Shown here: positions 19,875 through 56,927 of the stretch, piece by piece
Numbering within the stretch: the first letter of the stretch is position 1
How the letters are laid out: every line of letters begins with the position of its first letter
IMG/VR virus record: IMGVR_UViG_3300022851_000003
DNA from: a virus
Strand: one strand, 5' to 3'
Length of the DNA stretch: 59,477 bases
Notes under the pieces: model-generated
Database searches by the model: none
Told to the model about the DNA's origin: nothing
Seen by the model: the letters and a program-made list of their open reading frames with translations, nothing else
Position numbers and translations under genes: made by a program

Positions 19875-20089
19875 CGCCCCACACCTGCGTCGGCCTGCTC
19901 TACCGCTTCCATGTATCTCGCTGCTTCGCCGCAAACTATCAACGCTCGATGGAATGCGTGAGCCTGTTCGATTGTCTCAAACTTTGCCACTACCCTCGGT
20001 GAATGATTCGGCGATGACTCGCAAGTAATGAACGACGGTGCTCCGGCCACATCGAGCATCTTGATTGCGTCTACTGCTTCCTGACTCAT
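19871..20089 (-). CDS. hypothetical protein
   Basis: 72-aa ORF overlapping downstream start by 4 nt. Confidence 0.35.
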   Translation of the reverse strand: MSQEAVDAIKMLDVAGAPSFITCESSPNHSPRVVAKFETIEQAHAFHRALIVCGEAARYMEAVEQADAGVGR

Positions 20090-20183
20090 GGTCGCGATCC
20101 TAACAAGCCGTTGAAAAAGACGACGGCTTTAAGTTGGTTGGTTTGGTTTTACGTCTTCTCGCCGTCGCTTTTTAACGGCAGCG

Positions 20184-20519
20184 TTACGACGACTCTCGCC
20201 TTTGATTGCACGCATAACAAACGTCGCCCATGTGCATCGTCTTTCGCCCGCAATGCTTACAGCGTATCTCACGGAACTGCCGCAAGTTTCTGACGTTGTC
20301 GTTCATTGGTGGCTCAGGTGCTTCTAGCATCGCTGCAATCGCCTTGCGAATTGCCGTGGATTGTTTTACGCCGTGCTCATCGCACCACGCCTCAAGCGGC
20401 TGGCGAAGATCGCCGAGCCGCACTGTTGAAAAGACTGTCAACGAGGTTGTCTTTCCGATCGTTGAAAGCGTCAGCAACATTCGCGTACTAACGCTCACGT
20501 TCCTGGGTGTTCGTTTCAC
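20184..20519 (-). CDS. putative DNA-binding regulator with C-terminal zinc ribbon
   Basis: Segment LRQPLEAWCDEHGVKQSTAIRKAIAAMLE followed by CKHCGRK...CYAC. Confidence 0.4.
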   Translation of the reverse strand: MKRTPRNVSVSTRMLLTLSTIGKTTSLTVFSTVRLGDLRQPLEAWCDEHGVKQSTAIRKAIAAMLEAPEPPMNDNVRNLRQFREIRCKHCGRKTMHMGDVCYACNQRRESS

Positions 20520-30266: not shown

Positions 30267-30290
30267 GTGGTCACCAAATTGGTCACCAAA
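30267..30290 (+). repeat. candidate integrase arm-type site (GGTCACCAAA x2)
   Basis: GTGGTCACCAAATTGGTCACCAAA; second copy at 30516-30539. Confidence 0.45.
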
Positions 30291-30515: not shown

Positions 30516-30539
30516 GTGGTCACCAAACTGGTCACCAAA
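30516..30539 (+). repeat. candidate integrase arm-type site, copy 2
   Basis: GTGGTCACCAAACTGGTCACCAAA overlapping the integrase 3' end. Confidence 0.45.
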
Positions 30540-31706
30540 TCACGATTGTTTGTACGGCGATTCATCGAAGTCGATCTTCCCTTGCAGATCACCGACGTAG
30601 AATTTCCGCGTCGTTGTCTCGCTCGAATGCCGCAGGATCTCCTGGCACAGTTGGATAGGCATCCCACGCAGGCTCCATCGCGTGACCATGCTCGACCGGA
30701 AGTGTTTGGCCGTGGCCGTCTTCGGTGGCGACCCGGGTTCGGCGATCACCTCGGCCTTGGCTCCGATCGCGGAGATCAGCTTGGACAGAGCGGTTCGGTC
30801 TTTCACTTCGCCGGTCTCGCAACGCGGCTGGTAAATCGCTTCCGTCCGATCCGCCCGCTCCCGCAGGTGCGATGCGAAGTCGTTGGTAATCCTGGCGACC
30901 TGCGCACGCCGGTTCTTCTGGGCGGAAGTCCACGACATCATCGGTGTCGGCGTGTCGAGTCCGATCGGGTAATGCCAGTCACGGCGGGTTGCGTGCATCC
31001 CCAACGGCTCTCGCATCCGACAACCACTGAGCCAAAGAGCTTCCAGGTATTCCTGAACACTCGCCGCCGACCGGGATCCAACCAGGCCCGGGCAAACGTC
31101 CTGCATCTTCCGCAGCGATTCCTCACTGATCGGGATCAACCGCATCGCAGGAAGGTTCTGCTCTTGTCGGCCACGTCTTCGATTCGGCGGCATGTATCGC
31201 ATCAACTCCAGGGAAGCCGCCCACGAAAGACCGCTTCGGAGCGTTGCCATGTAACTCGGGATCGATCCGACCGCGATCGGCTTAAAGCCATCAATCCCCC
31301 GTCGAAGCGCAGTTTCCACCGAGGCGAGGAACAGAGGGGACACGTCCGAAAGAACGAACTCCCCTTGAATGTCCCGGCCCGCAACGGCATCGACGCGTTT
31401 ACAGACGGCAGACCACTTGTATCGGTTGTCGCTCGATGTGTCACTGAGATGGTCAGTCAGGTAGCGATCGCAGAAACGATCCCACGTCCATCCCTCGTTC
31501 CCCGAATTCAGCTTGGAATTCAGTTTGCTCTGAAGCTCGTCGGCCAGTTTATCGGCCGCTCGCTTCGATCTCTTGGAACGGGTGATGATTTCGGTCTTCT
31601 GGGTCTTAACAGACCGCGAGCCGAAGGGCCGCCACTTCAAGTAGTAGCAGCCCTTCGACGATTTCCAAAACGCGCTCACCCGCACAGTGGGCGCACAATG
31701 ATTCAT
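30540..31706 (-). CDS. int: tyrosine integrase
   Basis: C-terminal catalytic region KHFRSSMVTRW ... LRHSSETTTRKFYV (HxxR, H, Y); next to tRNA-derived att core. Confidence 0.8.
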   Translation of the reverse strand: MNHCAPTVRVSAFWKSSKGCYYLKWRPFGSRSVKTQKTEIITRSKRSKRAADKLADELQSKLNSKLNSGNEGWTWDRFCDRYLTDHLSDTSSDNRYKWSAVCKRVDAVAGRDIQGEFVLSDVSPLFLASVETALRRGIDGFKPIAVGSIPSYMATLRSGLSWAASLELMRYMPPNRRRGRQEQNLPAMRLIPISEESLRKMQDVCPGLVGSRSAASVQEYLEALWLSGCRMREPLGMHATRRDWHYPIGLDTPTPMMSWTSAQKNRRAQVARITNDFASHLRERADRTEAIYQPRCETGEVKDRTALSKLISAIGAKAEVIAEPGSPPKTATAKHFRSSMVTRWSLRGMPIQLCQEILRHSSETTTRKFYVGDLQGKIDFDESPYKQS

Positions 31707-31981: not shown

Positions 31982-32129
31982 TTCAAATAATCCTTGACTT
32001 AGCCGCTGGCAGGCACTATCGTGCATCCATACCGGTAACGGCCACCCTCACTGGGTTGGTTTGTAATCTGGAAATAGCTGATTGGGAACTTTCTTAGGGT
32101 ATAACAATCAGCGACGAAAACTTGGAACA

Positions 32130-32155
32130 AGCACGCCTGCCAGCGTGCTTTTTTT
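32130..32155 (+). terminator. intrinsic terminator
   Basis: AGCACGC-ctgcca-GCGTGCT followed by TTTTTT. Confidence 0.5.
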
Positions 32156-32577
32156 TATGCGCGGTCAGTTCATCGACTCGCCTCCTTTCTGCGTGAGCGC
32201 GTGAATACACTTGTATTTCTGAACTTTGTTCTCCGCGCAGCTTCCCAGATGACTAATATCTGAGTGCGGAGGAAGCGCCATTGAAGTGAATCCATTCTGA
32301 GGGATTGGCTTAGATGGTCCGGCATCTGTGTCGTTAGCACATTCGCCGGCCTTCGTTTTTGTTCGGGGATCATAGCGGCAATTGGTCGACGATCAAGGGA
32401 GTTGGTGGAAAACATCCACTAAGCAGCGAGTGCGGGTGCCCAAAATACACCGCCTGGTGACACGTTTGGTCCCAGATCGCCCAGCAAGAAAAGAGAAAAC
32501 CCAGAGCCTCGGGACTCAAACCCGCTTGGTTGAAAGGATGTGTCTCACCCTGGGTTCTCTCTTGGGGAATCGCAGGA

Positions 32578-32931
32578 CTATCCCTGATCCTGCTTCTCCC
32601 GAAGGCGTTTGGCCGCCCACCCACGGCGCTGAGCTGTTGCTCGTTTATCCCGAACCTCCCTTTCCTCTTGCGTCCATTCCGCCAAGCGGATCGTGACAGC
32701 TCCGTTCTTGCCGACGTTCCTGAGAACCTTGTAGTCGTGCCCTTGATTGCGAAGCCATCCTTTGAGGCGATCGATCAAAGACCTGGGGGTTGCCCCCTTC
32801 GCAAAATCAACGCCGGGCTCAAATGTCCAGTCAGTGCCGATATCCATGAGACAGTCCCACATCGACTTCTTGCTCTGCTGTTGGCTCTTGTAAAAAGCCT
32901 CTGGCGTCTCAACCCGTACTTGCTTTGGCAT
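32578..32931 (-). CDS. hypothetical protein
   Basis: 117-aa basic ORF in a low-coding region. Confidence 0.4.
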   Translation of the reverse strand: MPKQVRVETPEAFYKSQQQSKKSMWDCLMDIGTDWTFEPGVDFAKGATPRSLIDRLKGWLRNQGHDYKVLRNVGKNGAVTIRLAEWTQEEREVRDKRATAQRRGWAAKRLREKQDQG

Positions 32932-33043
32932 GTTCCATCACTCCCATTGACCTGTGACTAACTCGAAATCGGTAAACATCGTCTCATTTTGAGACACAAT
33001 CTCATTCTGAGACAGCCAGAGTACAGGAAACGCGAACCAAAGT

Positions 33044-33060
33044 GAACGAAGTTGCGACAC
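33044..33060 (+). promoter_or_regulatory. TTGCGACAC motif, copy 1
   Basis: GAACGAAGTTGCGACAC; related copies at 44797-44817 and 54991-55021, all intergenic. Confidence 0.3.
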
Positions 33061-33632
33061 TTTTGATTTTTTTCCTTCCAATTGGTTGACGTTTACTGAA
33101 GAATCCGTAGGTCGGGTGTCGAGAACCGATGAAAGTTTTGAAACATCTCGACCAGGGGAACAGACGAAGCGGTCCCCGCGCCACCATGAGCTAGCACCTC
33201 AGCACCAACCGCTTCACCAAAGTCTGAAAGCTCAGGCCGGGTGAGAAACCCATAAGTCAGCCCTGAGCCAGCAAACCCCTTGCAAATGACTGACGGCGTG
33301 GACTGACAGGTAACCCCTGAACAGCGAGTGTGAGCCGGTGATTAACCTTAATCACAAATCTGGATCACTGGAAACCGTTCTGTAAACGCAGAAGCAAAGC
33401 GATAATCCCCCCTTATAAGTCACAGTCTACCCAGCTTCCCCAGTTCAACGACCGTTGGCCCTGTGGGGGACTAAATAGTTTGGGTGGGATATATAGTATA
33501 CAGCGGGGCCGGTCGGGGTCGGGCCACCCCCATCGACGTAACTCCTTGCTGCTGCTTGACTTACGCACGGCGAACGCGAACGAAAAGGATCAGGCATCTC
33601 GTTTCCACCATAAAACCGAATGCATGTCCCTG

Positions 33633-34060
33633 TTACGAGTTCTTGGCGAGTGCCTCGTCGGTAGTGGATTTGCCAGCGTTCACTGCTTGCTTGGCCTTCT
33701 CCACGCGATAGCTCGGCACGTTCAATTCGATGCTCACGCTGTGATGCACCAACAAGCTGCATGTCGTGAAGAGAACACTGCGTCCCGATAACACCAACTG
33801 CTCCGCCAACGCACATAAGGCATGGCTCTTCCCCGAGCCCGGTTTGCCGAACAGCAGAAGATTCTCTCGGCGATCCAAGAACGATCCCAGGAGATTCCCA
33901 GGAATACTTATCCACAATTGCTGCAGCGGTTTGAGTAGGCGAATCGTTGGATCTGAGCGTCGGTAGCGTGTTCGGAATTGCGCTTGTGGAAAATATTCTT
34001 GCGAGAATCGGAATTGACTTGCTGCAACGAGCTCGCGTAACGTCTCGCCAGACGTTTGAC
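33633..34060 (-). pseudogene. DnaC/IstB-like AAA+ ATPase fragment
   Basis: LLLFGKPGSGKSHALCALAEQLVLSGRSVLFTT (Walker A) but only about 55 aa follow and no Walker B; N-terminal region also short. Confidence 0.4.
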
Positions 34061-34107
34061 ACTTTGTCAGACGCAAACGCAATCCCGATAACCTAAAGGA
34101 TCGGATT

Positions 34108-35061
34108 ATGAAAGTTGCTGAATTAGACCTGTGTGGTGGCGTACGCGCTGCTTTTCCGTTTGCCTGCCCTTGGCGAACTGACCGGGAGTTACCTGAGACA
34201 ATGCCGCAGGGCTCGGTGGTGCGGCGATTGGAACCGTTTGACGATGGCGATGATGCCATCGTTGGCGATGATACCAACGATGGCATCATAACCGCGGGGC
34301 GCAAGCACGATAGGACGGGGCGTGATGATGCGCGGGGCGTCGGTGATGATTCGGAGCGATACGCAGCTCTGGCGGACGTGCTGGGTGATGATGACGCGAC
34401 GATGGATGAGCTGTGCGCCGCATTCCTCAGCGCATCGCGGGACGCTGTGCGTGGTGCCCTGGACGATGCGGAATCGGCCCTGCTTGCGGAGTCGTTCCAA
34501 GAGACCCTGCCCGCGCTCGAGAAGGCGTTGAAGCGATACTATCATAACAGAACCGGTAATGTCGACGATGCGGTGTCTTGGTGCGTGTCCGAGCTGTATA
34601 CGAGCGTGGTCGATGCGGTGTTGCGGGGTCGTCTTGCAGTCCCGGCCAATGCTAGCCAATGGATCGGCAGCGCTCGCAAAATTCGAGGTGGCTATTGGAG
34701 CTCCAACCAGATCGTGATAGATGGAATGCCCGTAGCGCTGTTCGGGTGTGATGACACGGCTAACGATCACTACGAAAGTAGCCACCTCGATAGCGATGAC
34801 ACAATCCGCGTCTCTCGCCTGCGTCTGGATAACGAGCAGTTTGCTAAACATCTCGTTTCGTTGTACGAACTCGGTGCGCAGTGTGACGACGCACCGGGCT
34901 GGGTAGTCGAATCCCTTTGCCTGCTAGTGGAGCATCCTACCGCTACGCAGTCAGAATACGCCGCACAACGTGGAGTCACGGTGGCATGGTGGAAGCGGTC
35001 GCTAGTCGACATCCGCAAAGCAATCCGGTTCGGCGCGTTGCTAGGCGTATTGGATTGCTAA
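34108..35061 (+). CDS. hypothetical acidic protein
   Basis: 317-aa ORF with AAAGGA RBS; followed by a strong terminator. Confidence 0.5.
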   Translation: MKVAELDLCGGVRAAFPFACPWRTDRELPETMPQGSVVRRLEPFDDGDDAIVGDDTNDGIITAGRKHDRTGRDDARGVGDDSERYAALADVLGDDDATMDELCAAFLSASRDAVRGALDDAESALLAESFQETLPALEKALKRYYHNRTGNVDDAVSWCVSELYTSVVDAVLRGRLAVPANASQWIGSARKIRGGYWSSNQIVIDGMPVALFGCDDTANDHYESSHLDSDDTIRVSRLRLDNEQFAKHLVSLYELGAQCDDAPGWVVESLCLLVEHPTATQSEYAAQRGVTVAWWKRSLVDIRKAIRFGALLGVLDC

Positions 35062-35073
35062 GAAACGAGAAAA

Positions 35074-35105
35074 CCCCGCGTGACACACAATCACGCGGGG
35101 TTTTT
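35074..35105. terminator. intrinsic terminator (bidirectional)
   Basis: CCCCGCGTGA-cacacaa-TCACGCGGGG followed by TTTTT; A-run upstream. Confidence 0.6.
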
Positions 35106-35134
35106 ATTTGCCTTGACCTGATCGGATCGGCGCA

Positions 35135-35181
35135 CGAAAAAACCGCTCGCCCCAATTGTTGAGGCGAGCGGTTGTGTTTTT
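35135..35181. terminator. intrinsic terminator (bidirectional)
   Basis: AAAAAA-ACCGCTCGCC-loop-GGCGAGCGGT-TGTGTTTTT, just downstream of minus gene 35193-35666. Confidence 0.5.
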
Positions 35182-35192
35182 CCTTGTGGAAC

Positions 35193-35666
35193 TCAACGGT
35201 TCAGTTGAGCCTTGACTCGATCGCCCATCGTTGATGCCGATTTAGCGGGCGTCTTGGCCTGCTTCGCGGGTTGAGCGGCCGCCGACGCCTCGTTTGACGG
35301 CGCCCCCCCCTGCGATGATATGAACTGGGCGAACATTGCGAGCATCTCGGCCGGCATGGCCGGCATGGCCGGCATGGCAACTGTCGGCGCTTCCACTGTC
35401 GGCGCTTCCACTTTCGGCGCTTCCACTTTCGGCGCGGCCTGCTGTGCCGTGGCTGCGTCCATCGCGTCGAGCATCTTTTGGAACGTCTTAGCGTCGCCAA
35501 GAATCGCGTGCAATTCGTCGCGATAGATGGAGCGGAAGCGCCCCCGGGCACCAGCCTGCAATTGCAGAACTGGTGTAGCATCGGATCGTCCACCGAACGT
35601 GGTGAGCTGTGCTGTAAAAGTCGTTTTGCCATGGACGACTTCCGAAATGATCTGATTCGTGGTCAT
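35193..35666 (-). CDS. hypothetical protein with internal tandem repeats
   Basis: 157-aa ORF containing APKVEAPKVEAPTVEAPTVAMPAMPAMPA. Confidence 0.5.
   Translation of the reverse strand: MTTNQIISEVVHGKTTFTAQLTTFGGRSDATPVLQLQAGARGRFRSIYRDELHAILGDAKTFQKMLDAMDAATAQQAAPKVEAPKVEAPTVEAPTVAMPAMPAMPAEMLAMFAQFISSQGGAPSNEASAAAQPAKQAKTPAKSASTMGDRVKAQLNR
35351..35440. repeat. in-frame tandem repeats (9-bp x3 and 15-bp x4)
   Basis: CGGCATGGC x3 then GTCGGCGCTTCCACT x4 inside the CDS. Confidence 0.6.
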
Positions 35667-35793
35667 TGTGATTCTCCAGTTTGTGAATCAAGTGAACGTC
35701 TTGCCCCGGTCTGTCGCCGGGTTCGTTTCAAGGTGCCGAGGGGGGTGGTTGGTCATGGATGCGTTGCGATGCGAACGCGATACGTCTATCGAA

Positions 35794-35833
35794 ATCCGCC
35801 AGTCGCGTTAAATCGCAATCCGTCAGTCGCGTT
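35794..35833 (+). promoter_or_regulatory. operator-like direct repeats in divergent intergenic region
   Basis: ATCCGCCAGTCGCGTT and ATCCGTCAGTCGCGTT spaced 24 bp apart between divergent operons. Confidence 0.35.
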
Positions 35834-35872
35834 TCCATTGCATCGATTGACTTGAATTGAATTCCGCCAGCC

Positions 35873-35894
35873 ACCACCCCCCTGCCCACCTTGG
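35873..35894 (+). promoter_or_regulatory. 22-bp ACCACCCC...CCACCTTG motif, copy A
   Basis: ACCACCCCCCTGCCCACCTTGG, 59 nt upstream of the ATG at 35953. Confidence 0.4.
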
Positions 35895-35952
35895 ACCGAC
35901 AGCACCGGGCACTTGGCTCGGTAGCACCTGGTTCATTCTGGAGATTGATACA

Positions 35953-36939
35953 ATGCCCGCTTACTTCGATAAGGGACTCATGGTCGGACAGTCCGCATGG
36001 CACAAAGAGGGAACGGTGATTCCCGAAGACGATGATCGACGATTCGACATTGCCGCCTGCATCGGACTCGCCGACATGGACGATACGATCATCAAAGGCC
36101 GCTGCTTCTACGTTCTCGATGAAGAGGACGGACAACCGTGTGACGAAGTTGAAGGGTCTTACGTCACTGTGCGTAGGTATGCCGATGGGTCTTACAAGGC
36201 CCTTGGGACCGTCGGCAGCAAGTACCAGCCATTGCAACCTCGGGAGGCGTTCGATTGGTTCCAACCGTGGCTCGAAACTCGGGAAGTGTCGATCGAGACC
36301 GCCGGGACTCTGCAAGGGGGCCGCGTTGATTGGGTGATGGCTCGCATCCTTCGGGACAACGTGGATGTCGGTGGGGGCGACGAGATCGCCAAGTATCTCA
36401 TGCTCTCGACCGCTCACGATGGGTCACAAGCGACGTATTTGGGGTTCACGCCTCAACGGGTCGTTTGCAGCAACACGTTGGCGATGGCCACGAGCAACAA
36501 CGCATCGAAGTTACTTCGTGTCCGTCACACCAAAGGGCAAGAGCAAGCGTTGTCGACGATTCGAGAGACCATCGACCTGATCGACCGCGAATTCAATGCG
36601 ACTGGCGAGCAGTATCGCACGATGATGGAATGCAAAGTCAATCTGTCGGACATTCGAGCGTATGTCAAAATGGTCAACTCGGTCGATCCTGACATTGACG
36701 ACGATGCGATCGGCAAGAAGATCGGCAAACGCATCAACGACATGGTGGGGATGGCCGTTGACGGTTTGGGGCAATCGCCAAACGATCTAACGGCATGGTC
36801 AGCGTACAACGGGGTCACTCAGTATTTGAGCCACAAGTACGGATCGGATAACGAGAAACGTGTCGTTTCGATGATGCGAGGGACCGCTGCCGATATGGGT
36901 CGTCGTGCTTACGATCTTGCGTTGCAATTGGCCAGCTAA
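35953..36939 (+). CDS. DUF932-family protein
   Basis: ORF 35857-36939; ATG at 35953 after GGAG; STAHDGSQATYLGFTPQRVVCSNTLAMA resembles the DUF932 core. Confidence 0.55.
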   Translation: MPAYFDKGLMVGQSAWHKEGTVIPEDDDRRFDIAACIGLADMDDTIIKGRCFYVLDEEDGQPCDEVEGSYVTVRRYADGSYKALGTVGSKYQPLQPREAFDWFQPWLETREVSIETAGTLQGGRVDWVMARILRDNVDVGGGDEIAKYLMLSTAHDGSQATYLGFTPQRVVCSNTLAMATSNNASKLLRVRHTKGQEQALSTIRETIDLIDREFNATGEQYRTMMECKVNLSDIRAYVKMVNSVDPDIDDDAIGKKIGKRINDMVGMAVDGLGQSPNDLTAWSAYNGVTQYLSHKYGSDNEKRVVSMMRGTAADMGRRAYDLALQLAS

Positions 36940-36960
36940 CCACCCCGGTCACCACCTTGC
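36939..36960 (+). promoter_or_regulatory. 22-bp motif, copy B
   Basis: ACCACCCCGGTCACCACCTTGC at the upstream gene stop. Confidence 0.4.
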
Positions 36961-36964
36961 TACA

Positions 36965-36997
36965 AGCCCTCAGTCTTCGGACTGGGGGCTTTTTTTG
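36965..36997 (+). terminator. intrinsic terminator
   Basis: AGCCCTCAGTC-ttcg-GACTGGGGGCT followed by TTTTTT. Confidence 0.5.
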
Positions 36998-37031: not shown

Positions 37032-37202
37032 ATGCTTGAGGAACTACATCCACTGATCGCAGCAAGAGTGCTGCAAATGATGGGAGAGCCCATTGAAGAC
37101 CTGGCCCCTTTCAATGATGAACATCGTGAGATTGTTATCAAGTCTTTGCGAGTTGCATCTGACAAACGTCGGCCACTCACCACCCCCCTCACCACCTTGT
37201 AG
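37032..37202 (+). CDS. small hypothetical protein
   Basis: ATG at 37032 preceded by GGAG. Confidence 0.35.
   Translation: MLEELHPLIAARVLQMMGEPIEDLAPFNDEHREIVIKSLRVASDKRRPLTTPLTTL
37179..37200 (+). promoter_or_regulatory. 22-bp motif, copy C
   Basis: ACCACCCCCCTCACCACCTTGT overlapping the last codons of the upstream gene. Confidence 0.4.
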
Positions 37203-37498: not shown

Positions 37499-37879
37499 AT
37501 GACCACCGCAACACTCAAAGCCAAGCACGGCGACGACCCGACGTACCTGAAGTTCCGACGCGATCTTGCCCAACGCAAATGGGCCAAGCGGAAACGAGCA
37601 CGCAATGCGTTGTTCATCACCGCTGGGGCCAAGGCCGTTCGCCTAGTCAACGAATCTGGGGGCCAGTTGTTAATCCACCGGGCCACCCGAACCGACCGGA
37701 CGAGCGATTGGCAACTCACAACGGTCAGCGCTCACGATGGACGACCGTTCGGCCACAATAACCCGCCGACGTTCCAAGAGGCCGTCCTGCGAGCTGTGGG
37801 GGCCTCGGAGGATTGTTACTGGAACGAACACGGATACGAAATCGTCGAAGTCATCTCAAGCGAGGTGGTCGATGCTTGA
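37499..37879 (+). CDS. hypothetical protein
   Basis: 126-aa ORF with AGGAA RBS. Confidence 0.45.
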   Translation: MTTATLKAKHGDDPTYLKFRRDLAQRKWAKRKRARNALFITAGAKAVRLVNESGGQLLIHRATRTDRTSDWQLTTVSAHDGRPFGHNNPPTFQEAVLRAVGASEDCYWNEHGYEIVEVISSEVVDA

Positions 37880-38020: not shown

Positions 38021-38042
38021 ACCACCCTGCGGTCCACCTTGC
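38021..38042 (+). promoter_or_regulatory. 22-bp motif, copy
   Basis: ACCACCCTGCGGTCCACCTTGC. Confidence 0.4.
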
Positions 38043-39408: not shown

Positions 39409-39430
39409 ACCACCCCGCTAACCACCTTGG
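39409..39430 (+). promoter_or_regulatory. 22-bp motif, copy D
   Basis: ACCACCCCGCTAACCACCTTGG, 59 nt upstream of the dnaN-like ATG. Confidence 0.4.
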
Positions 39431-40565: not shown

Positions 40566-40587
40566 ACCACCCCCCTCCCCATCTTGT
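40566..40587 (+). promoter_or_regulatory. 22-bp motif, copy E
   Basis: ACCACCCCCCTCCCCATCTTGT just after the dnaN-like stop. Confidence 0.4.
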
Positions 40588-42575: not shown

Positions 42576-42901
42576 AAGTTGGCGACCAAGTGGAAGTGAT
42601 AGACGAAGGGCTGGCGATGCTTCGCCGATTGTGTCCGGGGATGCCCCCGAACCATCGCGGAAGGATCGAGGAAATCGACGGCGAAGATGGCAAAGCACAA
42701 CGGACGGCGATACATCGGGATCGAAGTGAACCCGGAGTATTGCGAGATTGCAGAGAAACGCTTAGCGCAACAAGTGCTGTTCTAGGTCAGGGGAACGCTG
42801 CCGATAAAAAGCGACGGCGAGAAAACGTAACCATCACCAACCAACCCAAAGCCGTCGTCTTTTTCAACGGCTTGTTACGATCGCGACCAGTAAAACCATG
42901 A
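42563..42901 (+). CDS. hypothetical protein (reading frame uncertain)
   Basis: 112-aa ORF; a methyltransferase-like remnant is encoded in another frame inside it. Confidence 0.3.
   Translation: MAELKVGDQVEVIDEGLAMLRRLCPGMPPNHRGRIEEIDGEDGKAQRTAIHRDRSEPGVLRDCRETLSATSAVLGQGNAADKKRRRENVTITNQPKAVVFFNGLLRSRPVKP
42603..42785 (+). pseudogene. C-terminal remnant of an N6/N4 DNA methyltransferase
   Basis: 60-codon open frame ending GSRKSTAKMAKHNGRRYIGIEVNPEYCEIAEKRLAQQVLF, resembling the FxGSGTT...GRxFIGIE C-terminus of amino-methyltransferases; no N-terminal half. Confidence 0.4.
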
Positions 42902-43407: not shown

Positions 43408-43617
43408 ATGCCTCTTCCCGATCTGACGACTCGCCAGCAATCCACTCTCATCAACAAGGTGGATCACAACTGCCGTCGAAATGGCAAGAGATTCCTGCGT
43501 GATCTCGGCGGAACTGGGCACGCCGCTGAACTCGACGCGCAATTACAAATCGCCCGTAACAATCCCGATGCGGTGAAAGCCGCCGAACTCTTTACGAAGG
43601 AGAAAGATCGGAAATGA
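43408..43617 (+). CDS. small protein co-transcribed with serine recombinase
   Basis: 69-aa ORF; stop overlaps recombinase start. Confidence 0.4.
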   Translation: MPLPDLTTRQQSTLINKVDHNCRRNGKRFLRDLGGTGHAAELDAQLQIARNNPDAVKAAELFTKEKDRK

Positions 43618-44438
43618 AAGTCATAGGATATGGTCGTGAATCGACCGCCGACCAATCGATTTCTGCCGAAGTGCAGCAGCGACAATGCCGCGAGTGGTTT
43701 GACCGAACATTCAAGGACAATCCTGACGCGAAGTTTGTGCGAATGCTCAACGACGAGTCCGTCTCAGGCAAGACACGCCTGTTCCAACGTCCGCAGGGGA
43801 GTCTCCTGTTGACCATGCTCGAACGAGGCGACACCGTCGTCGCGTCCAAAATGTCACGGATGTTTCGATCCATGCCCGACACGGTCAACACGCTCGACGT
43901 GTTCAATGAAGCCGGCATCAAGGTCGTGCTGCTCGACATCGGCATGGACTTCGACACGCCAGTGGGCAAACTAATCTTCCACATCCTCGGGGCAGTCAAT
44001 CAGTTTGAACGCGAACTAATCTCCGAGCGGACCAAGGAAGCTCTCGCCCAGCTCCGTGAACGTGGCCAATACCTCGGCTCACCACCGCCGGGGTGGAAGT
44101 TCGACAGCAAGCGGACCAACGGGATTCGGGAACTGATCCCTGACATGGACCGCCGCACCTTCGGGGAATACTCCCTCGATCAACTGGTCGAAGGCCGATC
44201 CGCCAAGTCGATTGCCTGCGAGATCGAAGCACTATTGCGGCGCGAGCACATCCAACGACACGGCACCAACCTGAAGGAAAAACGAGAGAAGATCGCGTTC
44301 TCCGACACCGATGTCGTTCGACTCGCCGCCTTTGCAGTGGCCGGGTTCCCGCCGATCAATAGCACGGCGCTGAAAAAAGTCCTCGGTGTCAATCCATTCC
44401 GAGTTGAAACCCTGCGGCAACTGGCAGCGTCCGCCTAA
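43614..44438 (+). CDS. serine recombinase (resolvase/invertase family)
   Basis: N-terminal VIGYGRESTADQS with catalytic Ser context; resolvase-like core through QFERELISERTKEAL; C-terminal extension. Confidence 0.75.
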   Translation: MKVIGYGRESTADQSISAEVQQRQCREWFDRTFKDNPDAKFVRMLNDESVSGKTRLFQRPQGSLLLTMLERGDTVVASKMSRMFRSMPDTVNTLDVFNEAGIKVVLLDIGMDFDTPVGKLIFHILGAVNQFERELISERTKEALAQLRERGQYLGSPPPGWKFDSKRTNGIRELIPDMDRRTFGEYSLDQLVEGRSAKSIACEIEALLRREHIQRHGTNLKEKREKIAFSDTDVVRLAAFAVAGFPPINSTALKKVLGVNPFRVETLRQLAASA

Positions 44439-44725
44439 CCGGACTTCGAGCCGATGAATTCTTTCGCCCAGCGGATCGTGCTGTAGCGGACGTTGCCGAT
44501 CCACTGGATCTTCAGTGTCTTGGAATGCTTCTTCTTCTTCCGTGAGAGCCCGCCGGTTGCCCATCGCTGATACGTGCGATACGTGCAATTGATGACACCC
44601 GCCTTCTCCATCGCTTTCGCAAGCTGCGGTAGCGTCATCAGGGTTGTCTCCTCAGCGACATCCTGATCGCCCCAAATCTCTTGCGCCTCGTGGCTTGTAG
44701 CCACCGTCTTCTTCGTCGCAGTCAT
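44435..44725 (-). CDS. HTH DNA-binding protein (excisionase/MerR-like)
   Basis: ORF 44435-44776 begins with TTG; ATG at 44725; segment MTLPQLAKAMEKAGVINCTYRTYQRWATGG. Confidence 0.45.
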   Translation of the reverse strand: MTATKKTVATSHEAQEIWGDQDVAEETTLMTLPQLAKAMEKAGVINCTYRTYQRWATGGLSRKKKKHSKTLKIQWIGNVRYSTIRWAKEFIGSKSG

Positions 44726-47995: not shown

Positions 47996-48586
47996 GTGCC
48001 CCGCCCTGCTGACGAACCTGCTTTCACGCCCGAGCATCCGCCGGGCGACGAAAAGTTCTGCACGCTATGCGGGGAAGAAAAACCCATCGACGAATTCCAC
48101 GTCGATGAGTCGGCTCATGACGGACGCAAGTCCAATTGCAAGGCGTGCCGATCACTTCAGCACGCCGAAGATGTGGAGTCTAAGGTCGACCCCCGCCTCG
48201 CCAAGATTGAAGAGGCAGGACTCGAAGCGCTCGACGCCTTCGCGGGTGGCGGATCATTCAACCCGCACACCCAAGAGCTGATCGACGGGTTTATGAGATT
48301 CCTGGGCGGTCACTACGGCCTGGTGAAACTGACGATGGCCCACTACCACGCGGCCAAACCAGGCAGTGCCGAGCGAGGGAAGACACTCGATAAAATCTAC
48401 CGGCTGATCGCCGCTGAGGACAAGCAGGATGGCTCGCTCGACAAACTTGACCGACGCCAACTCGAAGCCCTCGTCGTCAGCATCGGCACCAAAGCCGGGA
48501 TGCTGCCCAAGCCGAACGACACGCTGTCTCTCGATCACCCCGAAACCGTCAACGCGATCGCCCGTTCCAAAGGCGACGCACTATGA
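47996..48586 (+). CDS. zinc-ribbon protein (possible terminase small subunit)
   Basis: CTLCGEEK...CKAC; directly upstream of and overlapping the large terminase start. Confidence 0.35.
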   Translation: MPRPADEPAFTPEHPPGDEKFCTLCGEEKPIDEFHVDESAHDGRKSNCKACRSLQHAEDVESKVDPRLAKIEEAGLEALDAFAGGGSFNPHTQELIDGFMRFLGGHYGLVKLTMAHYHAAKPGSAERGKTLDKIYRLIAAEDKQDGSLDKLDRRQLEALVVSIGTKAGMLPKPNDTLSLDHPETVNAIARSKGDAL

Positions 48587-51441
48587 TTGACGACATCGAA
48601 TTCAGTGACATCGATCTTTCGACACACCTCGACACCGCCAACGAGATGCAGTCGGGCAGCGAAGCCAACGACTACGTGATCGACGAGTATCACCTGCACA
48701 AGATGCACTCCGCAGCGTCGGAGATCCAGCGCCGGGACATGGAGGCGATGCGGATCTATCGCCCCTCCAAAATCCAAGAGCAGTACCACGCATCCACTGC
48801 CAAGGAGACCGTGTTCGTTGCCGGGAACCAAATCGGCAAATCCATTGCCGGATACTCGGAAGACGGACGAGCTGCCGGTGGATGCGACCCGTACGGCAAG
48901 TACCCCGAGAAAGATGGCATCCTGGCCATCGTGGTCTACAAGGAATCGCAGATCAGGCTGAACACCTATCGGTATCTCCTCAAGCCCGGTGCGTTCGACA
49001 TCATCCAAGACGAAGAGACCGGCATCTGGAAACCCTATTATCCCTGGGTTCCCTCCGATGTTGCTCGCGCCGATCAACGGCGGCCCGCCCCACCGATCCT
49101 TCCACCGCGAATGATTAAGAGAATCCACTGGAAGTCCAAGATGGGCAACGTCCTGTCTCGGATCGACATGGAGAACGGTTGGGAGATTCACGTCTTCTCG
49201 TCGACCGCGAAACCAGATGCCGGGTTCCAAGCCGACCTCGTTCATATCGATGAAGACATCGCCAACGAAGAATGGTACGTCGAGATGATCGCCCGTCTCT
49301 CGATCCGCAAGGGACTCCTGCGATGGACCGCCCTACCGCTGTTCGATAACGACGCGCTGCCTCGTATCGTCGAACGGGCCGACGACGAAGCGGAGAAGCA
49401 CGCACGCGGCGGACCTGTGCCTACCACGACGGTCGTTCGCGGAACCATTTTCGATAACCCGTACCTGACCGACGATACCCGCGAAGAAAACATCAAGCGA
49501 TGGAAGGACGCGGGCGACGATGTCTACCGGCAACGTGCCCTCGGAGAACTCATCACCGACACGGTTCGGATGTACCCGACGTTCACGCCGGAAATCCATG
49601 CCGTCCAACGTTACGGCGAATCGCATCCTGAGTTGTTCGGCGAGTACCTTCGCACCCGTCGAATCCCCGACGATTGGTGTCTGAGATTGTTTGTTGACCC
49701 TGGGTTCTCCACCTGTGCCGCGTTGCTGTTCGCGACCCTGCGACCCGAGGGCGGCGACGACTCCGAACCAATGATTCACGTTGCTGTGCGTGAAATCTAT
49801 CGCCAGCAATGTGACGCCTCGATCTTTGCCCAACTCGCCTCGCAAACCGTTGGCGATCGATGGTTGCAAGCGATGGTCATCGACGCCCACGGTGGTCGAC
49901 TCACCGGCATCGGCGATGGTCGGCGTCCACAAGAGATCTACGAAAGCGAACTGGCCGAACGAAACGTCGTGTGCGTGGAGACCGGCTCTCGCTTCCGTGC
50001 TGGCTGCGACGACATCGTCTACCGGGAAACCGCACTGCGACAACGGTTGATCGTCTCGCCAGTCACCGGGCTACCGGAGTTTATGTACGACGAGGAGATG
50101 TGCCCGAACCTTGAAAAAGAAATGGTGCGGTTCCGAAAGCTGAGAACCCGTGGCGTCATCACCGATAAAGGCAACCGCAAAGCATTTACGCACGCTGTCG
50201 AGTGTTTCTGTGACCAAACCGAAGTCCTTACTGAAAGTGGCTGGAAGCGTTTTGCAGACGCCAGTATCAGCGACCGTTTAGCGACCGTGAACTTGGATAC
50301 CGATACGCTTGAGTTTCAGCATCCATCTCGAATTGTTGAAAGACCTCACAACGGACCGATGGTTCATGTTCACGCACAGAAGCTCAATGCGATGGTCACT
50401 CCTAATCATCGGATGGTTTACTACTCCGACACCGCAAGGCGAAAAAAGACAGGTCCATCTATCTGTTTCGCGGGCGACCTGTCTCCAAGCTATGCGTTAA
50501 AGCTGGCGGCAAAAAACTGGAACGCAGTTTCACCAAAGACATTCGTGCTGCCTGCGGTAGAACTGGATTCGCGACCAGGTAAGCCTGCCGAATTAAACAG
50601 ACTCGACTTCGCCCGGTTCATGGGATGGTACATCGCCGAAGGCTCTGCGGACAAAACAGTGCGTTGCCCTGGAAAGGGCTATCGCGTGTGCATTGCACAG
50701 AGAAAAGAACACGGCATCAACGCGATTCGCGAAATGCTTTCAAAGCTACCGTTTCATTTCGTTGTATCGGGCGACTGCTTCGTGATCTCCAACAAGCAAC
50801 TGTGGTCGTACCTTCGCCAGTTCGGAGACTGCTACACCAAGTTCGTTCCAGACTGGGTGCGACACGGAAGCAGAGAAGTCATCGAGTCGTTTATGGAAGG
50901 CGCTATGGCTGGCGATGGGTGGGTACAAAAGAACGCTCGACGATACGGAACCTCCAGCCCCCGCCTCGCCGACGACATCCAAGAACTATTCCTCAAACTC
51001 GGTTGTTCTGCATCTGTCACTGTTCGGTCGGCAGAGACGGCCGTGTCAAGGATGGTGAGAGGAAAGCCCTGCAAATCTACCTGTGATTTCTTCACGGTAA
51101 TCGAGAGGCTTGTTCCGAGCGTCCGCCTTAGTGACGCACACGACAAGCCGAATTTCAGCACAACGAACTACACCGGAAAGGTGTTCTGCGCAACCGTCCC
51201 CAATGGGACTCTTGTTGTAAGACGCAACGGCCAACCGCTCGTCGCTGGCAATTGCTATGAGTACGCAGCCGCCGACGAACTCAAGTACCACGCACCTCCC
51301 GCCCGTCGAACCCGCGAAACCCCCGGCGAACGTCGTGTTCGGATGTGGCGGGAACGCCAAGCGAAGCGACGAAAACAAATGGGTGGCGCTCTCGGCGTCA
51401 TCCATGGCGGCATCGACCTGTCTGCTCCCATGCCCACTTAA
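48583..51441 (+). CDS. terL: terminase large subunit interrupted by an intein
   Basis: P-loop-like VFVAGNQIGKS, Walker B-like ADLVHIDE, nuclease-like RLFVDPGFS and AMVIDAHGG; 350-aa intein in the C-terminal region. Confidence 0.65.
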   Translation: MIDDIEFSDIDLSTHLDTANEMQSGSEANDYVIDEYHLHKMHSAASEIQRRDMEAMRIYRPSKIQEQYHASTAKETVFVAGNQIGKSIAGYSEDGRAAGGCDPYGKYPEKDGILAIVVYKESQIRLNTYRYLLKPGAFDIIQDEETGIWKPYYPWVPSDVARADQRRPAPPILPPRMIKRIHWKSKMGNVLSRIDMENGWEIHVFSSTAKPDAGFQADLVHIDEDIANEEWYVEMIARLSIRKGLLRWTALPLFDNDALPRIVERADDEAEKHARGGPVPTTTVVRGTIFDNPYLTDDTREENIKRWKDAGDDVYRQRALGELITDTVRMYPTFTPEIHAVQRYGESHPELFGEYLRTRRIPDDWCLRLFVDPGFSTCAALLFATLRPEGGDDSEPMIHVAVREIYRQQCDASIFAQLASQTVGDRWLQAMVIDAHGGRLTGIGDGRRPQEIYESELAERNVVCVETGSRFRAGCDDIVYRETALRQRLIVSPVTGLPEFMYDEEMCPNLEKEMVRFRKLRTRGVITDKGNRKAFTHAVECFCDQTEVLTESGWKRFADASISDRLATVNLDTDTLEFQHPSRIVERPHNGPMVHVHAQKLNAMVTPNHRMVYYSDTARRKKTGPSICFAGDLSPSYALKLAAKNWNAVSPKTFVLPAVELDSRPGKPAELNRLDFARFMGWYIAEGSADKTVRCPGKGYRVCIAQRKEHGINAIREMLSKLPFHFVVSGDCFVISNKQLWSYLRQFGDCYTKFVPDWVRHGSREVIESFMEGAMAGDGWVQKNARRYGTSSPRLADDIQELFLKLGCSASVTVRSAETAVSRMVRGKPCKSTCDFFTVIERLVPSVRLSDAHDKPNFSTTNYTGKVFCATVPNGTLVVRRNGQPLVAGNCYEYAAADELKYHAPPARRTRETPGERRVRMWRERQAKRRKQMGGALGVIHGGIDLSAPMPT
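50203..51252 (+). mobile_element. intein with LAGLIDADG homing endonuclease
   Basis: Block A CFCDQTEVLTESG, block B TPNH, LAGLIDADG motifs FMGWYIAEGS and FMEGAMAGDG, C-terminal VAGN followed by Cys +1. Confidence 0.7.
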
Positions 51442-55690: not shown

Positions 55691-56927
55691 TTTTATCCTG
55701 ATTGTCTTGCTTTTTTTGCCGGTGCCTGTATTTGCGCAACCGCAGACGTCATTGGGTCGCATCTCGCAATCCAACATTGGCCGGCAGACCGACGCATCAA
55801 TCGGGCTAGTCCGGCTGAAGTCGGACCAACCGATCCCGGCGGCAGTGAGAGAGGCGGCGAAGTCAGTCTGCCGCGTGAATATCCGTGGCCGTGACGGCGG
55901 CGGTTACGCAGGATCGGGAACGTACATTGGCGAACGAACGATCGTCACAGCTCGGCATGTTGTCGCCGAAGGCGTTTTGACCACGACCACTGTTGACTTC
56001 GCAGGTCAGGTTTTCTCCGGTCGCGGATTCCTGGCGAACAAGACGGCCGATCAGTATTTGATTCAGATTGCCGAGACGCCCAACGTTCGGCCGATCCCGC
56101 TTGCCAGCCGACAGCCCGAACCGGGTGAAGTCGTCTTCGTCATGGGATTCGGCCACAACAAGTTTGACATTTGGTCGGCTCGTCTCACGTCCTACGGCTC
56201 AGCGGTTAGCCAACAAGACTCAGGGTTTTACACAGGCCGACGAAGCCGATCGGGCGACAGTGGCGGGGCGGTACTCAACGCGGCTGGCGAATACGTAGGC
56301 ACGATTTGGGGCGGAGGCAAGAACGACGCTGTTGCGGTCACGTACACACAGACTCGATCGTTTTTTCAGCGGTCAGGATTGCTCGGTCGATTGTTCGGCA
56401 GACGTGGCACGCCGGTGACCGAGGAGCAAACGATCACCGCAGGATGTTTCGGTGGCCAATGCACGCCACGCCCAAGACAACCATCACCGCAGCCATCGCC
56501 GCAGCCATCAACGAACGATCAAGGCTACGTGCCTGGGCCTGACTACTTTGGACAGCCGCCATCTAATCCGCCGGTGGACGCGCCGGCACCTTCTCTTGAT
56601 GTCGACGGACTGGTCGACGCGATCGCGGATCGAATCGGCACTCCGAAGTGTGAGTGTGATTGTGAATCAAAGCCGGGGGCACCTGGGCCGGTTGGCCCCA
56701 AGGGCGATGCCGGGCCACGCGGGCCGCCCGGTGATTCGGCAAGCATCACGCAAGAGCAACTCGAACAAGTTGCGGTCATGGTTCTTAGGCAGATGCCGAA
56801 GCCATCTCCGCAACGAGTCATGCTCGTCAATGGTGCAACCGGCAAAGTACTCGACGACGAAACATACCAAGATGGCGAACCGATCGTGATCGATTTCCAA
56901 AGGGTCATCAATGCCGCAACCAAATGA
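55683..56927 (+). CDS. secreted trypsin-like serine protease with collagen-like repeat
   Basis: Signal-peptide-like ILIVLLFLPVPVFAQP; His motif TARHV; Ser motif GDSGGAV; GAPGPVGPKGDAGPRGPPGD and QPSPQPSPQPS repeats. Confidence 0.65.
   Translation: MRDFILIVLLFLPVPVFAQPQTSLGRISQSNIGRQTDASIGLVRLKSDQPIPAAVREAAKSVCRVNIRGRDGGGYAGSGTYIGERTIVTARHVVAEGVLTTTTVDFAGQVFSGRGFLANKTADQYLIQIAETPNVRPIPLASRQPEPGEVVFVMGFGHNKFDIWSARLTSYGSAVSQQDSGFYTGRRSRSGDSGGAVLNAAGEYVGTIWGGGKNDAVAVTYTQTRSFFQRSGLLGRLFGRRGTPVTEEQTITAGCFGGQCTPRPRQPSPQPSPQPSTNDQGYVPGPDYFGQPPSNPPVDAPAPSLDVDGLVDAIADRIGTPKCECDCESKPGAPGPVGPKGDAGPRGPPGDSASITQEQLEQVAVMVLRQMPKPSPQRVMLVNGATGKVLDDETYQDGEPIVIDFQRVINAATK

Follow-up and report, generated by a model that had tools for sequence, protein, structure and literature searches.

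The divergent spacer and its genomic context

The sites that form the subject of this study are located in a non-coding spacer between two divergently oriented genes of the window, a term used here for the whole 59,477-nucleotide stretch of viral DNA that was analysed (IMG/VR record IMGVR_UViG_3300022851_000003). The spacer is bordered on the left by a leftward gene for a 157-aa protein, with which the gene for a 317-aa protein is convergent, and on the right by a gene of the DUF932/TIGR03299 family, the first gene of a rightward early cluster (Table 1). An earlier reading of the same DNA, made from the sequence alone and referred to below as the first-pass annotation, had described the two flanking genes as they are found here, with a distance of 287 bp between them. 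The homology-supported start of the DUF932 protein (MPAYFDKG) lies at position 35953, however, and the spacer therefore has a length of 286 nt. The same reading had placed the spacer between early and middle operons, which was not borne out: each flanking gene ends in its own intrinsic terminator, and the spacer thus controls two single-gene units and not two operons.

In the 157-aa protein, an N-terminal domain predicted to comprise four strands and two helices is followed by an Ala/Pro-rich repeat linker and a basic tail. The protein has no match in Pfam, PHROG or NCBIfam, a structure search returned no significant match, and the relatives recovered by metagenome, viral and genome scans and by a profile search of 1.8 billion proteins are restricted to near-identical loci and five proteins. 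The linker is encoded by in-frame tandem repeats at 35349-35435 (9 nt x 3.3 and 15 nt x 3.7), and its length varies between otherwise near-identical relatives. For the DUF932 protein, no relative was found in the PDB, and the literature on DUF932 held nothing functional.

The window looks like a complete tailed-phage genome, for which no DNA match was found in the phage reference collection. It encodes structural and packaging functions, namely a probable large terminase carrying a LAGLIDADG insert, a P22-like portal, a major-head-like protein and a minor tail protein, and functions of DNA metabolism, including RecT, a DUF3799 nuclease, RecU, a small serine recombinase and a protein with a weak tyrosine-recombinase match. 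Because the top cellular matches of the DUF932 protein come from MAGs of Pirellulaceae and Gemmataceae (39-45% identity), a planctomycete host is plausible.

Several features elsewhere in the genome were recorded alongside. The 952-aa protein encoded at 48583-51441 is the probable large terminase (a sub-threshold Terminase_6N match with E = 0.0031 and 17.6 bits, the cut-off being 22), and its residues 766-815 constitute a LAGLIDADG homing-endonuclease domain, suggesting an intein. A 98-bp inverted repeat with 91% identity between its copies (20089-20185 and 42794-42889) looks like the paralogous leaders of two oppositely oriented genes, one copy ending at an ATG and the other a few bases short of one; given the small serine recombinase close by (43614-44438), the 22.7-kb segment between the copies is possibly invertible. 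Directly downstream of the weak tyrosine-recombinase gene (30540-31706, minus strand) lie two tandem pairs of TGGTCACCAAAY (30268-30290 and 30517-30539, 250 nt apart), which are candidate attP arm-type sites. The stretch 32000-34300 is gene-poor and holds only a decayed IstB/DnaC-like fragment (33633-34304, minus strand); two independent assemblies have contig ends inside it, at about 33.3 and 33.8 kb.

Table 1. Coordinates of the features in and around the divergent spacer, as positions in the window.
Feature	Coordinates	Strand	Details
317-aa gene	34108..35061	+	convergent with the 157-aa gene
Intrinsic terminator of the 157-aa unit	35173-35141	-	directly after the gene
157-aa gene	35193..35666	-	single-gene unit
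Leftward second-motif copy	35729..35751	-	CAACCACCCCCCTCGGCACCTTG; left inverted-repeat arm; distance to the ATG of the 157-aa gene 63 nt
Site 1	35787..35804	+	TATCGAAATCCGCCAGTC; core CCGCCAG 35796-35802; weight matrix 24.7 bits
Site 2	35811..35828	+	AATCGCAATCCGTCAGTC; core CCGTCAG 35820-35826; weight matrix 25.9 bits
A+T-rich stretch between sites 2 and 3	35834..35862		29 nt; 34% G+C vs 55% for the whole spacer
Site 3	35855..35872	+	AATTGAATTCCGCCAGCC (third copy ATTGAATTCCGCCAG); core 35864-35870; weight matrix 28.3 bits, top in the window
Rightward second-motif copy	35871..35893	+	CCACCACCCCCCTGCCCACCTTG; right arm of the large inverted repeat; distance to the DUF932 ATG 60 nt
DUF932/TIGR03299 gene	35953..36939	+	328 aa; family matches 5e-41, 1.3e-54
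Intrinsic terminator after DUF932	36964..36991	+	C-rich motif copy 36940-36959 directly before
CCACCC-N7-CAYCTTG, all copies	35729-35748(-), 35874-35893, 36940-36959, 37180-37199, 38022-38041, 39410-39429, 40567-40586

Three direct copies of an 18-nt motif

Attention had been drawn to the spacer by two 16-bp direct repeats, ATCCGCCAGTCGCGTT at 35794-35809 and ATCCGTCAGTCGCGTT at 35818-35833, and both are real: they differ at one base, and their starts are 24 nt apart. The pair can be extended to a 22-nt repeat (35788-35809 and 35812-35833) in which 20/22 positions are identical at a period of 24, and for which Tandem Repeats Finder reports 1.9 copies of period 24 with a score of 78. When the 286-nt spacer was shuffled 1000 times with its dinucleotides preserved, the top direct 22-mer match (offsets 16-59) was 17/22, and since the shuffles never reached the observed value, the repeat is real and not due to chance. 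No further match to the 16-mer with 0 or 1 mismatch exists in the whole window, and at two mismatches a single one is found (56277-56292), which falls in a long ORF and is no more than expected by chance.

The set is nevertheless larger than the pair first noticed. The repeat unit is an asymmetric motif of about 18 nt with the consensus AATYGRATTCCGCCAGTS, present in three direct (head-to-tail) copies, here called sites 1 to 3. Sites 1 and 2 hold most of the two 16-bp repeats, the last 5 nt of which (35805-35809 and 35829-35833, respectively) fall outside the 18-mers. In the repeat-finder list, the third copy appears at 35856-35877 with just 68%, yet it is the closest of the three to the cross-genome consensus described below. 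Three exact matches to the degenerate pattern ATYGNAWTCCGYCAG exist in 59 kb, all of them inside 83 nt, and the genome holds no extra match even if two mismatches are allowed. With a weight matrix, the sites score 24.7-28.3 bits versus 13.5 bits for the runner-up position in the window, a comparison in which the gap to the next position counts more than the absolute bits, since the matrix was derived from the sites themselves. The consensus lacks an internal dyad, and copies 1 and 2 both end in the non-consensus tail TCGCGTT.

The array is located inside the 121 bp that separate two divergent leader- or promoter-like motifs, and the midpoint of sites 1 and 2 (35810.5) coincides closely with that of the divergent motif pair (35811). 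The A+T-rich stretch between sites 2 and 3 carries a TCCATTGCA box, which is duplicated in the relatives L005 and L298 and occurs about three times in L006. No sigma-70-type promoter was found in the spacer by a promoter scan, and a manual search for -10/-35 or ECF-like boxes at a fixed distance from either motif gave nothing consistent. Likewise, the spacer (35667-35952) has no Rfam match; the weak Rfam matches (E about 0.01-0.3) are all located in the terminators at 35009-35180.

Conservation of the sites in related phages

Relatives of the locus were found via the 157-aa protein, the DUF932 protein and the 317-aa protein. Eight other distinct relatives carry the 18-nt motif where their early gene cluster begins; their DUF932 proteins are 53-69% identical to that of the window (99.7% in L005/L298). 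In all nine distinct genomes, every copy lies on the strand of the downstream early genes, i.e., the DUF932 strand. Two or three direct copies occur in L005/L298, L006, L011, L012, L013, L014 and L296, and one in L295; in a group of near-identical viruses (L002-L004, L007 and L008), the spacer is identical or almost so. In L006, whose 157-aa protein is 51% identical, the motif takes the form GTTCGTCAG and is found in two copies, ATCGAAGTTCGTCAGTCA and ATCGCAGTTCGTCAGTCA, 23 nt apart. The form (G/A)ATTCCGCCAGTG is located upstream of DUF932 in two copies in L011, three in L012 and two in L013, with DUF932 identities to the window of 69%, 61% and 58%, respectively, whereas in L014 and L296 two copies of ACATCGAATGCCGCCAGA head the same gene cluster before a different first gene. 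The sequence flanking the sites is not conserved among the relatives.

The arrangement of the copies is less constant than their sequence and orientation. The first-pass annotation had taken the repeats to be about two helical turns apart, a view that had to be given up, as 24 bp corresponds to 2.3 turns and the distance between neighbours varies across genomes (20, 23, 24, 37, 40, 41, 44, 47 and 55 nt); the helical phase is therefore not conserved. The core is 133-137 nt from the DUF932 ATG in the case of the proximal core in L011 and L013 and of the site-2 core in the window, and the proximal copy in L014 ends about 50 nt ahead of the start codon of the first gene.

Some local rearrangements around the sites may be mentioned here. 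Both L005 and L298 have an 11-nt duplication of TTTCCATTGCA between sites 2 and 3 (L005 2725-3015, L298 4546-4836; window 35834-35844), which increases the spacing of these sites from 44 to 55 nt, a shift of about one helical turn, and L006 holds approximately three copies of the YCATTGCA box. Directly upstream of the 18-nt sites, L013 (1955-2350) and L014 (456-820) contain long non-coding arrays of short repeats (TGCCCCGGTGATCTC x4; AGCCCGC x about 9).

Comparison with L006 also shows how the copies have evolved. ATCGAA in copy 1 and ATCGCA in copy 2 are common to the window and L006, and the duplication is therefore older than the split between them; at the same time, both copies read AATCCG in the window and AGTTCG in L006, bases that are specific to each lineage. 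Such a concerted change of the copies fits one protein reading both of them, or gene conversion. The identity to L006 amounts to 14/18 in site 1 and 16/18 in site 2 (with an alignment gap set aside), to 63% over the whole spacer and to 65-66% in the flanking coding DNA. The sites are hence conserved better than their surroundings, which, like the concerted change, speaks for a function.

In 1.12 Mb of DUF932-containing loci, motif clusters are restricted to this clade, with two isolated matches elsewhere versus 3.6 expected. Direct repeats upstream of DUF932 reach p <= 0.01 in 3/126 distant loci and are therefore not a general trait of DUF932 genes. A scan of viral contigs for TTCCGCCAGT-N9-39-TTCCGCCAGT yielded at least 120 matches, none of which lies beside a DUF932 gene; in many cases there are several matches whose spacings are divisible by nine, a hint at coding repeats.

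A second motif and the symmetry of the spacer

Site 3 abuts a second, C-rich motif of the form CCACCC-N7-CAYCTTG. The window holds seven exact copies of this motif versus 0.18 expected, all between 35.7 and 40.6 kb. All seven point in the direction of the downstream gene and are located at the 5' edge of intergenic spacers, and each is followed by a small hairpin within about 10 nt (CCCGG-CGACAGA-CCGGG in the case of the leftward copy) and, at a distance of 38-220 nt, by a ribosome-binding site of the CTGGAGA type with its start codon. Lineage-specific versions occur in L011/L012 and in L013. The motif could be a promoter for an unknown sigma factor, a stoperator-like roadblock or a nut-like signal; a phage RNA polymerase that might read it was not found among the large ORFs.

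Over its entire length, the spacer folds into one hairpin through nested inverted repeats (z = -5.6 on the plus strand and -3.6 on the minus strand). The arms of this hairpin are two divergent copies of the second motif, the five other copies of which occur singly, and the spacer owes its dyad symmetry to the paralogy of the two leaders. The long fold is found only with a divergent gene pair, as in the window, L006 and L011 (z = -5.5, -5.8 and -4.6), and is missing from L013, L014 and L295 (z = -0.7, -1.5 and -0.8), where the upstream gene has the same direction and the 18-nt sites are kept. As the sites persist where the fold is absent, the hairpin is a by-product of which the repeats are independent. 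A long hairpin, or a structured RNA or DNA, was thus rejected as the cause of the repeats.

A probable control element upstream of DUF932 and its candidate binders

The repeats are very probably functional, and the view of the first-pass annotation that they are regulatory is supported in part: they are non-random, they lie in a divergent control region, and they are conserved in relatives in the way that protein-binding sites are. On balance, the array probably represents the sites for one sequence-specific DNA-binding protein which sets the transcription of DUF932 and, where it is present, of the divergent gene for a protein of about 150 aa. In this mechanism, each asymmetric copy of about 18 bp would be occupied by one protomer or a small oligomer, with no strict demand for one face of the helix. 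The bound protein would set the transcription of DUF932 as the first gene of the rightward early cluster and, where the ~150-aa gene is inverted, that of the divergent gene as well, presumably by acting on transcription initiation through either repression or activation. Since sites 1 and 2 lie at the centre of the region, their occupancy would occlude or recruit RNA polymerase, and a protein on site 3 would be in contact with the rightward C-rich motif. The array is an ordinary kind of control element of which a new instance has been found.

By analogy with known systems, the array appears most like a phage operator or a cluster of upstream sites. Tandem sites of the same orientation upstream of a promoter are likewise found in araI1-I2, the target of AraC, and in the boxes of OmpR/PhoB, and the P1 C1 operators are asymmetric 17-mers. 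These sites have a defined spacing (21 or 10-11 bp) or occur in many dispersed copies, unlike the array, and no protein families of the AraC, OmpR/PhoB or P1 C1 type were detected near the site by family searches. A closer parallel in some respects is provided by the operators and stoperators of the cluster A mycobacteriophages, where the sites of L5 gp71 are asymmetric and their orientation correlates with the direction of transcription (PMC9283540). The sites of the array share this asymmetry and have a single orientation that follows transcription, and binding of one monomer per site, as in L5, would explain their free spacing. In contrast to the L5-type sites, however, which are dispersed in more than 20 copies over short intergenic spaces, the 18-nt motif is found at one locus; the stoperator-like distribution in this genome belongs to CCACCC-N7-CAYCTTG, with its seven oriented copies at intergenic edges. 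A repressor like gp71, which would be a monomeric protein of two domains, was not found by family searches.

Candidates for the protein that would read the sites are the syntenic 317-aa protein, the ~150-aa protein and a host factor. The module consisting of the 317-aa family, the ~150-aa protein, the sites and DUF932 is syntenic in five lineages (the window, L006, L011, L013 and L295). The C-terminal segment of the 317-aa family can be aligned in register with RpoE region 4.2 from E. coli (hhalign E = 0.011), and one member of the family matches Pfam Sigma70_r4_2 weakly (E = 0.016); a PDB profile search with the 317-aa protein was empty, and its structure model is poor (pLDDT 42). From these matches, we infer that the 317-aa protein, with its weak sigma-70 region-4-like helix-turn-helix, is a candidate binder. 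In L014, the sites are present and a different gene takes the place of a 317-like gene directly upstream, so that no candidate co-occurs perfectly with the sites. It is furthermore unusual for the motif of a phage-specific repressor to be kept across phages this divergent; a host factor, or a role outside transcription such as that of a replication origin, may be indicated instead.

DUF932 itself was considered as an autoregulator and rejected, given that it lacks a PDB relative and that upstream repeats accompany so few of the 126 distant DUF932 loci. The first-pass annotation had proposed the RHH protein (20184-20519) and the HTH protein (44435-44725) as regulators; neither has a demonstrable link to the sites, from which they are 15 and 9 kb away, respectively. 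Pfam searches assigned no significant family to either protein, and an NCBIfam search with the RHH protein gave a sub-threshold aCcr1 match only. Separately, a 126-aa protein (37499-37879) without a family match has an Arg/Lys-rich N-terminus, KFRRDLAQRKWAKRKRAR, and is 83% identical in L011 versus 69% for DUF932; it is possibly a nucleic-acid-binding regulator.

Alternative explanations

The main rival, which we regard as unlikely, is that the sites are the iterons of a phage replication origin, where an initiator would bind the direct repeats and melt the adjacent A+T-rich stretch. Like the iterons of the lambda origin and of theta plasmids, which are direct repeats of 17-22 bp beside an A+T-rich stretch and unique in the replicon, the array comprises two to three copies of an asymmetric direct repeat of 18-22 bp which occurs nowhere else in the genome, is interrupted between sites 2 and 3 by a stretch of low G+C content and lies between divergent transcription units. 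The adjoining arrays of other short repeats in L013 and L014 would agree with an origin, as would the persistence of the motif in divergent relatives, which is expected of an essential cis site. However, iterons usually number four or more, are phased regularly at about 22 bp and lie in or beside the gene of their initiator. The array, with its few copies and irregular spacings between 20 and 55 nt, departs from this pattern and is associated with no recognisable initiator: there is no adjacent gene for an initiator (Rep, O), a helicase or a primase, and the sole DnaC/IstB-like signal is the decayed fragment 1.4 kb away. Moreover, the site has a single DnaA-box-like sequence, with two mismatches, and no G+C-skew turning point that is specific to the repeat locus, and DUF932 genes of other clades are rarely preceded by repeats.

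Less probable than an origin is that the motif is itself a promoter element, with the copies acting as two or three promoters in tandem that an alternative sigma factor would read, for example the 317-aa protein or a host ECF sigma. This proposal would account for the lack of a sigma-70-type promoter in the spacer, for the constant orientation of the motif in the direction of the downstream genes, for the position of the proximal copy in L014 shortly ahead of the first gene, and for the synteny of a sigma-r4-like protein with the sites in five lineages. It is difficult to reconcile with the lack of a conserved -10 candidate at a fixed distance downstream of the copies and with distances of 20-24 nt between copies, at which the promoters would occlude each other. 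Furthermore, the motif is missing from all other intergenic regions of the genome, and such a sigma factor would therefore serve a single locus.

The first-pass annotation had expected the operator of a lysis-lysogeny switch at this position, and CI/Cro-type bistable switch operators are now a very unlikely explanation. The geometry is indeed similar to that of the lambdoid OR/OL operators, which are closely spaced sites of about 17 bp in three copies between divergent early genes, as are the three copies in 35787-35872, and the phage could be temperate by virtue of its serine and putative tyrosine recombinases. Lambda operators, however, are dyad-symmetric and dimer-bound, overlap mapped -35/-10 boxes and have the repressor and cro as their neighbouring genes. 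The sites of the array, in contrast, are asymmetric direct repeats and not palindromes, and the flanking genes, both single-gene units, encode an orphan protein and DUF932, neither of which is an HTH repressor or otherwise resembles the CI/Cro regulators. In addition, lambda operators diverge fast between heteroimmune relatives, whereas the motif is kept where DUF932 is 53-69% identical, and also where the upstream gene has the same direction.

An element that functions at the RNA level is less likely again. According to this explanation, the copies would be part of a long 5' leader of the DUF932 mRNA and would be bound by an RNA-binding regulator, for which the strictly conserved orientation relative to DUF932, the pairing of two copies in L012 with a downstream complement into hairpins, and the presence of CsrA among the genes that relatives encode in the leftward block, a few kb away, could be taken as indications. 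Yet secondary structure around the copies is not conserved in the other genomes, nor does the motif look like the GGA site of CsrA; Rfam recognises nothing in the spacer, and the promoter would need to sit within or beyond the leftward leader.

Least probable of all are recombination or packaging sites (attP arm-type, resolvase or pac/cos) and a neutral tandem duplication: arm-type and terminase-binding sites are often direct repeats, and the tail shared by copies 1 and 2 is what a 24-nt tandem duplication would leave, but the integrase-like gene lies at a distance of 4 kb, with candidate repeats of its own (at 30268 and 30517), the terminase is 12 kb from the array, and neutrality is contradicted by the persistence of the motif in the eight other distinct relatives, where the flanks diverge completely.

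Possible implications for gene regulation in phages of Planctomycetota

By preferring a set of sites for one DNA-binding protein, two tempting readings of the spacer are corrected, i.e., that of a 286-nt hairpin and that of a lambda-like switch. What takes their place is a testable cis element, defined by three 18-bp sites with the conserved core CCGYCAG, together with a small set of candidate binders, in an uncultured group of phages that probably infect Planctomycetota, whose phage gene regulation is essentially uncharted. The array marks the head of an early gene cluster that starts with DUF932/TIGR03299, a family which is very widespread in mobile elements and has no known function.

A bolder proposal can be built on these observations, which we regard as unlikely. 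The sites might be recognised by an orphan protein of the module itself (the sigma-region-4-like 317-aa protein, the ~150-aa protein or DUF932/TIGR03299) and might form, together with the seven copies of CCACCC-N7-CAYCTTG, a two-tier control circuit for early genes in phages of Planctomycetota, in which the 18-bp sites would act as a local switch and the copies of the second motif as stoperator- or nut-like signals. If true, such a circuit would for the first time give access to the function of these orphan families and to the gene regulation of Planctomycetota phages.
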